Below, in pieces: positions 13,253-23,444 of a stretch of DNA of 64,000 nt (position 1 is the stretch's first letter; every line of letters starts with the position of its first letter). Both the position numbers and the translations under genes were made by a program. Location of the stretch: NCBI GenBank assembly GCA_022340885.1, contig JAJDND010000107.1, positions 9,722-73,721 of the forward strand, in the 5' to 3' direction. The stretch is from Desulfobacterales bacterium. GTDB lineage: Bacteria > Desulfobacterota > Desulfobacteria > Desulfobacterales > UBA11574. The notes below the pieces were generated by a model. That model did no database searches. It had not been told where the DNA came from and saw only the letters and a list, made by a program, of their open reading frames with translations.

Positions 13253-16200
13253 ATGACCGAGAAAGTTAACGGATCAGTAATCGTAGTGGGTGCCGGCATT
13301 GCCGGTATGCAGTCTGCATTGGATCTTGCCGATTCCGGCTTTTATGTTCATCTGGTCGAAAAGTCGCCGGCGATCGGCGGTGTCATGGCGCAGTTGGACA
13401 AGACCTTTCCCACCAATGACTGTTCCATGTGAATTATTTCTCCCAAGCTGGTCGAGGTCGGCCGGCACATCAACATCGAGCTTCATACCTGTTCAAACGT
13501 TGAAAGGATTGAAGGCGAGAACGGAAACTTTCACGTTACCCTAAACAAAACCCCCCGCTATATTGATTCCGACAAATGTACCGCCTGCGGTGATTGTGCC
13601 GGCGTGTGCCCTGTAACAATACCCAGCAAATATGATATGGGCCTGGCAGATCGGAAGGCCACTTACAAGCTGTACGCCCAGGCCATCCCGGGCAGCTTTG
13701 CCATAGAAAAATTTGACACGGCCCCGTGCCGGATGGCGTGCCCGGCAAATTTGAATGTCCAGGGATACGTGGCCATGGTCAAGCAGGGAAAATACGAGGA
13801 AGCCGTCAAGATCATCATGGAGGATTTGCCGTTTCCAGGCATCCTCGGGCGAATCTGTCCCCATCGCTGCGAAAAAAGCTGTCGCCGGCTTGAATTGGAC
13901 TCGTCGATTTCCATCCGCGAGCTTAAACGGGTGGCTGCGGATCATGTGGATCTGAGCAAGCTTCCGGTTCCGGATATTACACCCAGAAATGAGAAAGTGT
14001 CGATTATCGGGGCCGGCCCTGCAGGTCTTACCGCAGCCTATTTTCTGGCCATCGACGGGTATGAGGTGAGTGTTTACGAATCCATGCCCGAGCCCGGCGG
14101 AATGATGCGATACGGGATTCCCGAACACCGGCTGCCGCGGTCGGTGCTGGATGCGGAGATCGATAATCTCAAACGATACGGGATAACAATTCATACCAAT
14201 ACTGTTATCGGCAGGGACCTGACCCTTGAAGAACTCCGCGAGCATGGGGCAAGTGCCATCTTTTTGGCCATCGGGGCGTGGAAAGGCTTGAAGCTCCGGA
14301 TCCCCGGGGAGGAGACCGCCGAGGGGATTTCCGATGTGACGACCTTTTTGCGGGAGGTGCATCTGGGGAATTTAAAGCAGCTTTCCGGGAAGGTGGTGGT
14401 CATCGGCGGTGGCCATTCGGCGCTGGATGCCGCGCGGGTGGCACTTCGGCTGGGTGCGAGCGAGGCGCATATCGTCTACCGCCGGAGCCGGACCGAGATG
14501 CTTGCGGAACCCGAGGAAGTGGAAGAGACCGAAGTCGAAGGCGTCAAGATCCATTTTCTGGCGGCGCCGATCAGCATTGGCAGTGAAAACGATAAGGTGA
14601 CGGGTATCGAGTGCATCCGGACCCGGTTGTCCGATATGGACAGCACCGGCCGTCGAAAGCCGATTCCCATAGAAGGCTCTGAATTTTTTATCGAAGCCGA
14701 CCATATTATCCCTGCCATCGGACAGGAGCCCGATTTTGCCGGTTTAACCCAAAAACTGAATCTCAACGTGTCCAAATGGGGGCTTTTGGAGGTGAATCCC
14801 GAAACCCTTCAAACAAACATTCCCGAGATTTTCGCGGGCGGGGATGTGATTTCAGGACCGGCGACGGTGATCGAGGCGGTGGAGGCCGGCCAACGGGCCG
14901 CCAAATATATCGGGCAGTATCTGCAGGGCAAAGTCCTGCCCACTGAATGGCAGGAAGAACCACCCATGGGCACGAACTGGCAAGCGCCGTCAAAAGACGA
15001 ACCCATGAAAGATCGGCTGAAGGTTCCGACGCTGCCAAAGCAACAAAGGCTGTCGGGATTCGAAGAAGTAAACCTTCAGGTGGATGAGACATCGGCCCAG
15101 GAAGAGGCGGACCGGTGCCTGGACTGCGGGGGCTGCTGTGAGTGCTATCGATGCGTCGAGGCCTGCGGTCCACAGGCCGTCACCCTGGAAACCCATGCCC
15201 AAAAACCCGAGACGGTGGAACTCGAGGTGGGGTCGGTGATTCTGGCGCCGGGATTTACGCCGTTTGATCCTTCCAAGTTCGACAATTACAATTACGCGAA
15301 ACATCCCAATATTGTCACGTCTACGGAATTTGAACGAATCCTGTCGGCCACGGGCCCTTTCATGGGGCATCTTACCCGGATATCGGACAAGAAAGAACCC
15401 AAAAAGATTGCATGGTTCCAATGCATCGGTTCCAGGGACCTTAATCGCTGCGACAACGCCTATTGCTCCTCCGTATGTTGCATGTATGCCGTAAAAGAAG
15501 CGGTCATCGCCAAAGAACATGCGGATTATGATCTGGATTGTGCGGTCTTTTTTATGGATATGCGAACGCCGGGCAAGGATTTTGAAAAATATTACAATGA
15601 TGCCGAAAACAAACACGGCGTCCGGTTTATCAGAAGCCGGGTTCATACCATCGATCCTGTTCATGGAACCGATGACCTTGAGGTTCGGTATGTTACGGAT
15701 AAGGGTGAGCTCAAAACCGAGATCTTCGACATGATCGTCCTTTCCGTGGGTATGGAAATATCACCGGAAATGGTGGATATCGCAAACGATCTCGGCATAG
15801 AACTGACGGATGGGAAATTTTGTAAGACATCGGATTTTCAATCTTTTGCAACATCAAGAGATGGTGTTTTTGTCTGCGGCGCATTTCAGGGACCCAAAGA
15901 TATCCCCGAGTCTGTCATGGAGGCAAGCGCCGCAGCCTGCAGCACCGGCGTTAATCTGTCCGCGGCCCGGGGCGCTCTCGTCAAAGAGCGGATATTCCCC
16001 GATGAAAGTGATATTTCCGGCGAGGAACCGCGCATTGGCGTGTTTGTGTGCAATTGCGGCGTTAACATCGGCGGTGTTGCCGATGTGCCGGCCATTGCCG
16101 AGTATGCCAAAAACTTGCCCAATGTCGCCTATGTAGAAGAAAATCTTTTTACCTGCAGTCAGGATACTCAGGATAAAATGGTCGAAGTTGTCAAAGAACA

Positions 16201-22124: not shown

Positions 22125-23444
22125 ATGGCTGAAGAAGCAATTAAACTCGGCGGCAAAAAGAAAAGTATTTTTCTGGACAAGGTAAAGGAGCTGCTTCCCG
22201 AAGGGGGGCATCTTAATCTTTGCCTGACTTGCGGCGCCTGCTCGTCCGGATGCCCGGCCACGGGCCTGGAGGATATGGACCCGAGAAAGTTCTTACGCAT
22301 GGCTGCCCTTGGAATGGACGAAGAAATAACCAGTTCGCCCTGGGTGTGGATGTGCACCATGTGTCAGCGGTGCATTTACGTGTGCCCCATGAAGATCGAC
22401 ATCCCGCAACTGGTCTTTAATGCCCGGGCGTCATGGTCCAGGGAAGATCGGCCCAAGGGGATTCTCGGATCGTGCGACATGGCATTGAAACATGATACCT
22501 GCAGCGCCATGGGGACGTCCGAGGAAGACTTCCAGTTCGTGGTGGAAGACGTGCTGGAAGAATACCAGGAGGCCCAGCCGGAGTTCAGTGATATGAAAGC
22601 GGATGTCAACCGGGAAGGGGCCGAGTTCTTTTTGAACCAGAACTCCAGGGAACCGGTCACCGAACCCGATGAAATGGTGCCCCTTTGGAAAATCCTCCAT
22701 TTGGCCGGCGCCGACTGGACTTACGGCACCAAGGGATGGGCTGCGGAAAATTACTGCATGTTTCTGGCGGATAACGATGCCTGGGAACATATTGTGCGGG
22801 TAAAAGCCAAGGCCGTGGATGATTTAAAGTGCAAGGTCTGGCTCAATACCGAGTGAGGGCACGAACTTTTTGCAGTCCGGGCCGGACTGAAAAAATTCAA
22901 CATCGAGCATAAGTTTGAAATCAAAAGCATCATTCAGTATTATGCCCAGTGGATCCGGGAGGGAAAACTCAAAGTCAATTCCGACTGGAACAAGGATCTT
23001 CAAATCAAATTTACGGTTCAGGACCCCTGCCAGTTGGTTCGCAAAACCTTTGGGGACCCGGTGGCCGAAGATTTGAGATATACCGTGAAAGCGGTGGTGG
23101 GTGAAGAGAATTTTATCGATATGCAACCGAATCGGTCGAACAACTACTGCTGCGGGGGCGGCGGCGGATTTCTCCAATCCGGGTATCCGGAAGCACGCCG
23201 AGGATACGGCAAGCTCAAAGCCGACCAGATTTTAACGACAAAAGCGAATTACTGCATTACGCCGTGCCACAACTGCCATGCTCAGATTCATGATTTGAGC
23301 GACATCAATGACCATGCATGGCATACCGTTCATCTGTGGACGCTGATTTGCCTGTCACTGGGGGTGCTGGGGCCCAATGAGCGCGAATATCTGGGTGATG
23401 AGCTTAAAGAAGTATTGCCCTTTCACCCTGAATCGGCGATGTAG
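22125..23444 (+). CDS. HdrD-like protein (HdrC-type 2x[4Fe-4S] domain fused to HdrB-type CCG domains); selenoprotein, Sec at 22854-22856
   Basis: Track ORFs 22125-22856 and 23034-23444 share one frame with only one TGA between them. The N-terminus has CLTCGACSSGCP and CTMCQRCIYVCP. The C-terminus has a canonical CCG domain (DPCQL...NYCCGGGGG...PCHNCH). The UGA lies in KVWLNTE-U-GHELF. Confidence 0.8.
22873..22889 (+). promoter_or_regulatory. SECIS-like hairpin for the UGA at 22854
   Basis: CAGUCC-GGGCC-GGACUG forms a perfect 6-bp stem with a G-rich loop. It starts 16 nt after the UGA. Confidence 0.55.

Follow-up and report, generated by a model that had tools for sequence, protein, structure and literature searches.

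Five TGA codons lie inside the reading frames of a single operon, hdrL-mvhD1-hdrA2-mvhD2-hdrD-metV-metF, in a 64,000-nucleotide (nt) stretch of DNA from an uncultured sulfate reducer of the Desulfobacterales (hereafter the window, to which all positions refer), and the question is whether these codons specify selenocysteine (Sec), end the proteins, or are decoded in some other way. An earlier note, written from the sequence alone, had read them as Sec codons of HdrA-, MvhD- and HdrD-type proteins, each followed by a GC-rich hairpin of the kind expected for a bacterial selenocysteine insertion sequence (SECIS), and had called the cluster unusually dense. In this study, we examined the hdr–metF operon region of the window, compared it with related loci of the same order and weighed the alternative explanations. 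Our results make it highly probable that all five TGAs are Sec codons in one conserved operon, Sec incorporation in this organism being a prediction.

Materials and methods

The comparison set consisted of 38 Desulfobacterales loci, one genome per species, with HdrA2 identities of 65–96%, which were retrieved by HdrA2 peptide patterns that did not include any UGA site. Two of the loci (L019 and L027) were from metagenome-assembled genomes (MAGs) assigned to Desulfosudis oleivorans and Desulfonema limicola, respectively. Orthologous Sec sites were located by a motif search that accepted U (Sec) or C and a few substitutions, and in which a site with another residue could go unseen. Because MvhD1 and MvhD2 carry Sec at different positions, the Cys-bearing MvhD paralogue could be used as a control for Sec sites, at equivalent protein positions within the same operon. 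Hairpins were compared with the bacterial SECIS (bSECIS) model, whose cut-offs are a loop of 3-9 nt, an upper stem of at least 4 base pairs (bp), a G in loop positions 1-2, a UGA-to-loop distance of 16-37 nt and a minimum free energy of -7.5 kcal/mol or lower (PMC13188914).

Results

Five TGA codons in the hdr–metF operon

Based on translation and Pfam analysis, the operon comprises the following genes, in this order on one strand (lengths in amino acids, aa):

13253-17683, + strand: hdrL, 1476 aa with one UGA read through, ending in TAA; HdrA plus a GltD/NfnB-like NAD(P)H-binding module
17826-18575, + strand: mvhD1, 249 aa; Pfam FlpD (E = 2e-50); C-terminal extension of ~115 aa
18666-21686, + strand: hdrA2, 1006 aa; Pfam HdrA; E = 1.5e-122 to 9sfi_A
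21686-22108, + strand: mvhD2, 140 aa; Pfam FlpD (E = 8e-49); E = 4.6e-43 to 9sfi_K
22125-23444, + strand: hdrD-like Fe-S oxidoreductase, 439 aa; HdrC-like Fer4 dicluster (Fer4_8) plus CCG domain (Pfam)
23541-24215, + strand: metV, methylenetetrahydrofolate reductase (MTHFR) C-terminal-like, zinc-ribbon/ferredoxin-type subunit; Pfam DUF5981 (E = 1.5e-32); syntenic in most loci reaching far enough
24357-25283, + strand: metF, methylenetetrahydrofolate reductase; Pfam MTHFR (E = 4e-41); public record MCG6973306.1; syntenic

The claim that each of the five TGAs splits two open reading frames (ORFs) lying in the same frame was borne out: the flanking peptides matched exactly, each TGA was the sole stop between two long open stretches, and the joined pieces made up full-length HdrA-, MvhD- and HdrD-type proteins. 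The earlier note had also foreseen that a gene caller would report fragments. The public gene calls for this contig indeed store the operon pieces as separate short genes with misleading names, the 243-aa N-terminal HdrD piece being called 'heterodisulfide reductase subunit C' and the post-UGA C-terminal piece of MvhD1 a 'hypothetical protein' or, in one IMG record, a 'predicted transcriptional regulator'.

Several features of the individual proteins are relevant to the comparisons below. The start of mvhD2 overlaps the stop of hdrA2 by 1 nt. In HdrL (Pfam domains Pyr_redox_2, Fer4_20, FAD/NAD-binding and Fer4), the NAD(P)H module is an insertion among the HdrA domains, an architecture defined as the 'HdrL' type in Desulfobacterium autotrophicum (PMC2702500). 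MvhD1 gave a VhuD-like match below the cut-off in NCBIfam; its C-terminal extension (residues ~135-249; 18230-18575, + strand) is missing from MvhD2 and from solved MvhD proteins. The N-terminus of the HdrD-like protein matched solved HdrC (phmmer against the PDB), its best NCBIfam models (HmcF, TmcB and DsrK) all scored far below their cut-offs, and its residues 127-285 had no Pfam match at E up to 10.

Predicted Sec residues in homologous proteins

The five codons and their immediate contexts were as follows:

13430-13432, + strand: Sec codon 1 (HdrL), NDCSM-U-IISPK, CxxU; TGA in 28/28 orthologous sites found
18024-18026, + strand: Sec codon 2 (MvhD1), GVLVAG-U-HFGDCHY, second VhuD Sec position; TGA in 32/32 orthologous sites found
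18840-18842, + strand: Sec codon 3 (HdrA2), NDCAM-U-VISPK, CxxU; TGA in 35/35 orthologous sites found
21731-21733, + strand: Sec codon 4 (MvhD2), AFCCDY-U-GYSAADLAG, CxxU, first VhuD Sec position; TGA in 38/38 orthologous sites found
22854-22856, + strand: Sec codon 5 (HdrD-like), WLNTE-U-GHELF, 'UGH' motif; TGA in 34/34 sites found

Alignments agreed with the earlier proposal that U falls in a Cys column of each family. The U of HdrA2 aligned to X (Sec197) of Methanococcus maripaludis HdrA (9sfi_A) and to Cys in 5odc_A, and by paralogy with site 3 the HdrL site is placed in the same column. Sites 2 and 4 both aligned to X in 9sfi_K and to Cys in 7bkb_F; the site 2 column holds Cys in MvhD2 and the site 4 column Cys in MvhD1. 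The solved HdrA and MvhD proteins of Methanothermococcus and other methanogens carry Cys in these columns, and the residue at site 5 was Cys in all of the 120 best full-length HdrD homologues.

Both X positions of VhuD in 9sfi_K were read by us as Sec, on the grounds of the two archaeal Sec residues reported for this family. A two-Sec CxxU pattern was described for VhuD in archaea (PMC13188914), and bacterial FrhD/MvhD were found to have just one of the two archaeal Sec (Zhang and Gladyshev, 2007; PMC1976440). With regard to HdrA, a 2026 cryo-electron microscopy study of the M. maripaludis Hdr–Vhu complex assigned the residue as Sec197, bonded to a cysteine, and proposed it as an electron relay between flavin adenine dinucleotide (FAD) and cluster A3, with a Cys194/Sec197 selenylsulfide bridge (PMC13518236). 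Judged by alignment, the predicted Sec residues of HdrL and HdrA2 would each belong to a CxxU pair beside the bifurcating FAD that corresponds to Cys194/Sec197 of M. maripaludis HdrA. The two MvhD Sec positions are what we take to be [2Fe-2S] ligand positions in the MvhD structure.

In the HdrD-like protein, the Sec position is that of an invariant Cys (E-C/U-G-H) upstream of the recognisable CCG domain, and UGH is among the motifs given for Fe-S oxidoreductase-like selenoproteins as a family (PMC13188914). Attempts to map this Sec onto a canonical CCG-motif cysteine failed: hhalign of the N- versus C-terminal halves gave a probability of 0.3%, and a phmmer search against the PDB matched only the HdrC-like N-terminus.

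With these features, HdrA2 (by alignment) and HdrL (by paralogy) belong to the HdrA family, having an HdrA fold with CxxU at the Sec197 position, and MvhD1 and MvhD2 to the MvhD/VhuD/FrhD family (PF02662), having a FlpD domain with U at the middle (MvhD1) or N-terminal (MvhD2) VhuD position. The HdrD-like protein, with a Fer4 dicluster, CCG domain and UGH motif, was assigned to the GlpC/HdrD family without the PTHR43551 model. For all three selenoprotein families, Sec at exactly these positions is well established, and both the phenomenon and all of its components are already known.

SECIS-like hairpins downstream of the five codons

The following hairpins were found downstream of the UGA codons:

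13447-13466, + strand: SECIS-like hairpin 1, 8-bp stem, loop AGGU, UGA-to-loop 22 nt, -12.5 kcal/mol
18042-18060, + strand: SECIS-like hairpin 2, 8-bp AU-rich stem, loop GGA, UGA-to-loop 23 nt, -7.1 kcal/mol
18858-18875, + strand: SECIS-like hairpin 3, 7-bp stem, loop AGGU, UGA-to-loop 22 nt, -9.1 kcal/mol
21748-21762, + strand: SECIS-like hairpin 4, 6-bp stem, loop GGC, UGA-to-loop 20 nt, weak, -4.5 kcal/mol
22873-22889, + strand: SECIS-like hairpin 5, 7-bp stem, loop GGC, UGA-to-loop 23 nt, -9.1 kcal/mol

All five start 14-16 nt after the UGA, as had been described, and have stems of 6-8 bp. The description of the hairpins as GC-rich did not hold throughout: only 3/8 pairs of hairpin 2 are G-C, and hairpin 4 has just 6 bp and the low stability listed. 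Their geometry (loops of 3-4 nt, UGA-to-loop 20-23 nt) and loop G were within the limits of the bSECIS model at 5/5 sites. As for the energy limit of -7.5 kcal/mol, sites 1, 3 and 5 passed; site 2 passed only with an outer helix (18029-18072, -16.2 kcal/mol); and site 4 failed, an extended segment (21745-21768) reaching -6.2 kcal/mol at best. Hairpin 5, when extended (22863-22898), gave -12.7 kcal/mol, and hairpin 3 differs from the single-sequence minimum-energy fold at its site.

Like the Escherichia coli fdhF-type SECIS and the bSECISearch model, these elements are in-frame hairpins directly 3' of the UGA, with a small apical loop whose first or second nucleotide is G and the next one G or U, and with distances of 20-23 nt that lie within the allowed 16-37. 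Unlike them, they have no sequence similarity to the E. coli fdhF SECIS, and hairpin 4 and, marginally, hairpin 2 fail the energy cut-off of the model. A background scan showed that about 5% of the codon positions of the operon have a downstream hairpin meeting the model at -7.5 kcal/mol, and given this chance level, the presence of hairpins alone was rejected as proof. In a single sequence they are no more than chance expects, and their statistical weight comes from the comparison across genomes. An Rfam scan of the whole window gave no SECIS match, Rfam being without a bacterial SECIS family; its sole match was a SAM (S-adenosylmethionine) riboswitch elsewhere.

Conservation across the order

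TGA was kept at all of the 167 orthologous sites recovered by motif search in the 38 genomes. No Sec-to-Cys reversion occurred among the sites found in these species-level genomes, which span the order; Sec/Cys exchange is otherwise common in HdrA, MvhD and HdrD-type families. The Cys positions of the paralogous MvhD proteins were always TGT or TGC, and in every genome examined MvhD1 had the arrangement Cys...Sec and MvhD2 the arrangement Sec...Cys. The flanks on both sides of the TGAs were conserved as protein while varying synonymously, and the gene order hdrL-mvhD-hdrA-mvhD-hdrD-metV-metF was kept in most loci covering the region.

Conservation of the hairpins in orthologous operons, on which the earlier note had made its reading depend, was observed at nearly all sites of the 38 genomes. 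A matching hairpin, spacing and loop was recovered in 94-100% of orthologues per Sec site, whereas the Cys control sites had no consistent hairpin (the median best energy at the MvhD2 control was 0.0 kcal/mol, meaning mostly no qualifying hairpin). At every Sec site, the 5-7 codons that form the hairpin had a synonymous-codon entropy of ~0 bits, compared with ~0.4-2.0 bits at the Cys-paralogue controls. For instance, the codons CAT TAC CTG GAA GGT AAT at site 2 had ~0 synonymous variation versus 0.7-1.8 bits at the MvhD2 Cys control, and those at site 4 (GCG GAC CTG GCA GGT, identical in 37/38 sequences listed, L003 having GCG as the loop codon) had an entropy of ~0 versus 0.4-2.0 bits at the MvhD1 Cys control.

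Hairpin 1 had a synonymous entropy of ~0, and in the HdrA alignment the 18-nt core CTGGTCGAGGTCGGCCGG, including six third-codon positions, was shared by 55/56 distinct sequences; in the sole exception (L032), both partners of one hairpin 1 pair were changed, from C-G to U-A, which is a compensatory change. Hairpin 3 was identical in 32/32 distinct orthologous sequences. Hairpin 5 was more variable: at its closing pair, 21 sequences have G-C and 5 have U-A, its second pair changes from A-U to U-A and from A-U to G-C, and altogether 5 pairs are changed on both sides, with a covariation score that was exceeded in 0/500 shuffles and was higher than that of every slid control. Conservation beyond the protein constraint, together with the covariation at site 5 and the one compensatory pair at site 1, indicates that the hairpins are under selection as RNA.

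SelB-dependent SECIS decoding is an established bacterial mechanism. If it operates here, each UGA would be recoded during translation by a short hairpin inside the coding sequence that starts 14-16 nt downstream and whose loop of 3-4 nt, at a distance of 20-23 nt, has G as its first or second nucleotide; SelB·GTP·Sec-tRNA(Sec) would bind this hairpin and, competing with release factor 2, bring Sec into the A site of the ribosome.

Some loci departed from the common organization. L033 and L036 have a single long HdrA and no MvhD1, and in L021 and L038 metV-metF is placed before hdrD. L015 contains two HdrD-type UGA sites (8824 and 12073) whose downstream 54 nt are identical, reflecting either a duplication or an assembly repeat.

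Alternative explanations

Several observations weigh against the assignment of the five TGAs as Sec codons. Hairpin 4 (-4.5 to -6.2 kcal/mol) misses the cut-off of -7.5 kcal/mol and the perfect stem of hairpin 2 (-7.1 kcal/mol) just misses it, and the z-scores of the single-sequence folds relative to shuffles are unremarkable (-0.4 to -2.4). Sites mutated to a residue other than U or C may escape the motif search. Because hairpins 2 and 4 are invariant, as are hairpins 1 and 3 for the most part, they offer no covariation there, and their support is suppressed synonymous change, which another RNA- or codon-level constraint could in principle cause. In addition, ARAGORN and NCBIfam/Pfam searches (the latter on ~40 window genes) did not find selA, selB, selD or tRNA-Sec in the window, in a further ~8 kb of flanking sequence or in the 30 related loci searched. 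This absence says little, because these stretches are all that the search covered. Cultured members of the order carry the full set of Sec machinery: D. autotrophicum HRM2 has selA, selB, selD and tRNA-Sec (PMC2702500), and Desulfococcus multivorans has selABD together with Sec-containing HdrA and MvhD (PMC5109826). A LysR regulator in the window (32299-33195, - strand) was considered as a link to selenium and rejected, since it scored 137.7 bits against a cut-off of 250 on the 'selenium metabolism-associated LysR' model and better on the CysB and Cbl models.

UGA is known to have been reassigned to Trp or Gly in some other bacteria, and reading of the five UGAs as a standard amino acid (Cys, Trp or Gly), by a suppressor tRNA, near-cognate decoding or partial reassignment, would also fit the lack of visible Sec machinery in the window, flank and related loci. 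Nevertheless, TGA terminates 15/42 window genes and therefore is not generally reassigned; all five columns are Cys/Sec and none is Trp or Gly; and each UGA is followed by a conserved hairpin of SECIS geometry, which general suppression would not require and which is absent at the paralogous Cys codons. Given also that cultured members of the order have selABD and tRNA-Sec, we consider this explanation very unlikely. Slightly less probable still is that the UGAs are true stops and that the protein halves assemble as separate polypeptides. Candidate starts, such as GTG at 18843 and ATG at 18084, do occur soon after some of the UGAs, but the breaks would then interrupt single folded domains (in HdrA, the FAD-binding Rossmann/thioredoxin-reductase fold; in the 123-residue FlpD domain, the stretch between Cys positions that are conserved), the residues from the UGA to the first possible restart are conserved in frame, and the Cys-bearing homologues are single chains. 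The least credible possibility, to which we give almost no weight, is that the TGAs arose by inactivating mutation, or by mistakes in sequencing or assembly, and that the operon is a set of pseudogenes, as the separate short genes of the public gene calls might suggest. The five TGAs recur at every one of the 167 sites found, in 38 independently assembled genomes with 65-96% protein identity, and flanks that are conserved while varying synonymously point to purifying selection on one continuous frame. Taken together, the evidence argues strongly for Sec codons.

The five Sec genes themselves end in TAA (four) or TAG (one) and never in TGA, and 15 of the other 37 window genes end in TGA; these numbers are small and the difference may be due to chance. 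At 60312-63071 (- strand), a GlcD-like FAD oxidase gene and a GlcF-like gene (Fer4 plus CCG) lie in one frame with a TGA and 27 nt between them; this arrangement looks like ordinary termination and a new start, with no recoding.

A Cys-type orthologous operon, in which loss of the hairpin could be examined, was not obtained: P0001 and P0022, the two Cys homologues of full length that were examined, were paralogues in unrelated contexts. In L039, the gene called at 11822-12553, beside the Cys-type HdrD paralogue P0001, encodes exactly 243 aa and has no domains other than Fer4; another HdrD paralogue cut at a Sec UGA would be expected to have this length.

Discussion

Comparison with known selenoprotein systems

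The closest known counterparts of the two HdrA-type proteins are the Sec-containing HdrA of M. maripaludis (9sfi chain A), matched by the N-terminal 432 residues of HdrA2 (E = 1.5e-122), and that of deltaproteobacteria (Zhang et al., 2006; PMC1794560), which share the family, the motif TFPTxDCxMU and the column; in deltaproteobacteria, hdrA likewise clusters with an MvhD/FrhD gene (PMC1794560; PMC1976440). In contrast with methanogen HdrA, the proteins encoded here lack its N-terminal ~140 residues (they match from chain residue 144 onward), one of the two copies carries a fused GltD-like NAD(P)H module ('HdrL' type), the SECIS elements are of the bacterial in-frame type rather than the archaeal type in the 3'-untranslated region, and MetFV takes the place of a hydrogenase or formylmethanofuran dehydrogenase as operon partner. 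The MvhD proteins resemble VhuD/MvhD/FrhD (PF02662) in that the two X positions of 9sfi_K correspond to sites 4 and 2, each bacterial copy using one of them; they differ in that two paralogues split both positions between them and in the ~115-aa C-terminal extension of MvhD1.

The HdrD-like protein shares the E-U-G-H motif and the Fer4 dicluster plus CCG organization with Fe-S oxidoreductase-like GlpC/HdrD selenoproteins, whereas those of its full-length Cys homologues for which the gene neighbourhood was inspected are paralogues located elsewhere, for example adjoining EtfAB. Multi-Sec operons of the type glpC-hdrA-frhD-frhG-frhA were reported in Syntrophobacter fumaroxidans and Desulfotalea in 2006 (PMC1794560). 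As in the S. fumaroxidans operon, an HdrD-type gene here stands beside Sec-containing HdrA and FrhD/MvhD, but the hydrogenase subunits FrhA and FrhG are missing.

The suggestion in the earlier note that five Sec codons in one operon make an unusually dense cluster was overstated, since this number per operon is not unusual in Desulfobacterota. At least 31 selenoproteins, including HdrA1, HdrA2, HdrL1, HdrL3, HdrD4 and four MvhD proteins, were described in D. autotrophicum HRM2 in 2009 (PMC2702500). The five-Sec metF-linked cluster as a unit is not in the HRM2 table (PMC2702500), and we found no paper describing it explicitly.

Possible function of the complex

The sole characterised enzyme of this kind is the Moorella thermoacetica MetFV-HdrABC-MvhD complex, a methylene-tetrahydrofolate (methylene-THF) reductase (Mock et al., 2014; reviewed in PMC5861303), and a link between metF and HdrABC has been noted in Seep-SRB1g sulfate reducers. 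The operon combines metF, metV, hdrA, mvhD and HdrB/C-type genes in one cluster, as does that of Moorella. In view of this gene content, the Moorella enzyme and the Seep-SRB1g proposal, the complex is probably a methylene-THF reductase or methyl-THF dehydrogenase belonging to the Wood-Ljungdahl pathway, NAD(P)H-linked and possibly electron-bifurcating; HdrL would provide the pyridine-nucleotide site. Unlike the Moorella enzyme, it has two HdrA-type genes (one with the NAD(P)H module), two MvhD proteins, a fused HdrCB-like (HdrD-type) subunit and five predicted Sec residues.

It is conceivable, though we regard it as rather doubtful, that the MetFV-linked Hdr module of complete-oxidising and autotrophic Desulfobacterales is strictly selenium-dependent at five positions. 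If so, the complementary placement of Sec would suggest that the two MvhD proteins, which feed HdrL and HdrA2, differ in their redox tuning.

Implications

The main value of these results lies in annotation, as metabolic reconstructions from MAGs can miscount or misname the methylene-THF reductase subunits of the Wood-Ljungdahl pathway. Otherwise, the operon is one more case of the well-documented selenoprotein-rich Hdr/Mvh modules of Desulfobacterota. A mildly useful new datum is the strict order-wide retention of five Sec codons and their hairpins beside paralogous Cys sites, which offers a clean natural control set for bacterial SECIS models, including the short and weak site 4 hairpin that energy cut-offs reject.

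Neighbouring elements

Upstream of the operon, a GcvH-domain protein of 309 aa is encoded at 11973-12902 (+ strand). It has an N-terminal extension of ~140 aa matching no family and scored below the cut-off on every GcvH model, including 'GcvH-related, desulf'. Its upstream region contains the following elements:

11675-11691, 11775-11791 and 11893-11908, + strand: sigma-54 promoter consensus and palindromes, identified by sequence match

The sigma-54 consensus TGGCAC-N5-TTGCT is perfect, lies 65 nt upstream of the gcvH-like start and is the only zero-mismatch match in the window, and two near-identical palindromes (TGCCGAAwATTTCGGC) are found ~100 and 200 bp further upstream. Just upstream of this region, 7605-9671 encodes a sensor kinase and 9726-11078 a sigma-54 response regulator. 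With this pair nearby, the consensus and palindromes look like an enhancer-dependent promoter, which is a prediction from sequence matches. Directly after the gcvH-like stop, at ~12934-12970 (+ strand), there is a strong hairpin resembling a terminator (CCCCCCTGCCG...CGGCAGGGGGG, then a run of T), and for this reason the hdr-metF genes are probably a transcription unit apart from gcvH.

On the other side, the metF operon is adjoined by a gene for a MetE-like cobalamin-independent methionine synthase (25558-26631, - strand), and the SAM riboswitch (RF00162) lies upstream of this gene at 26830-26925 (- strand), with a score of 59 bits (E = 4e-11).

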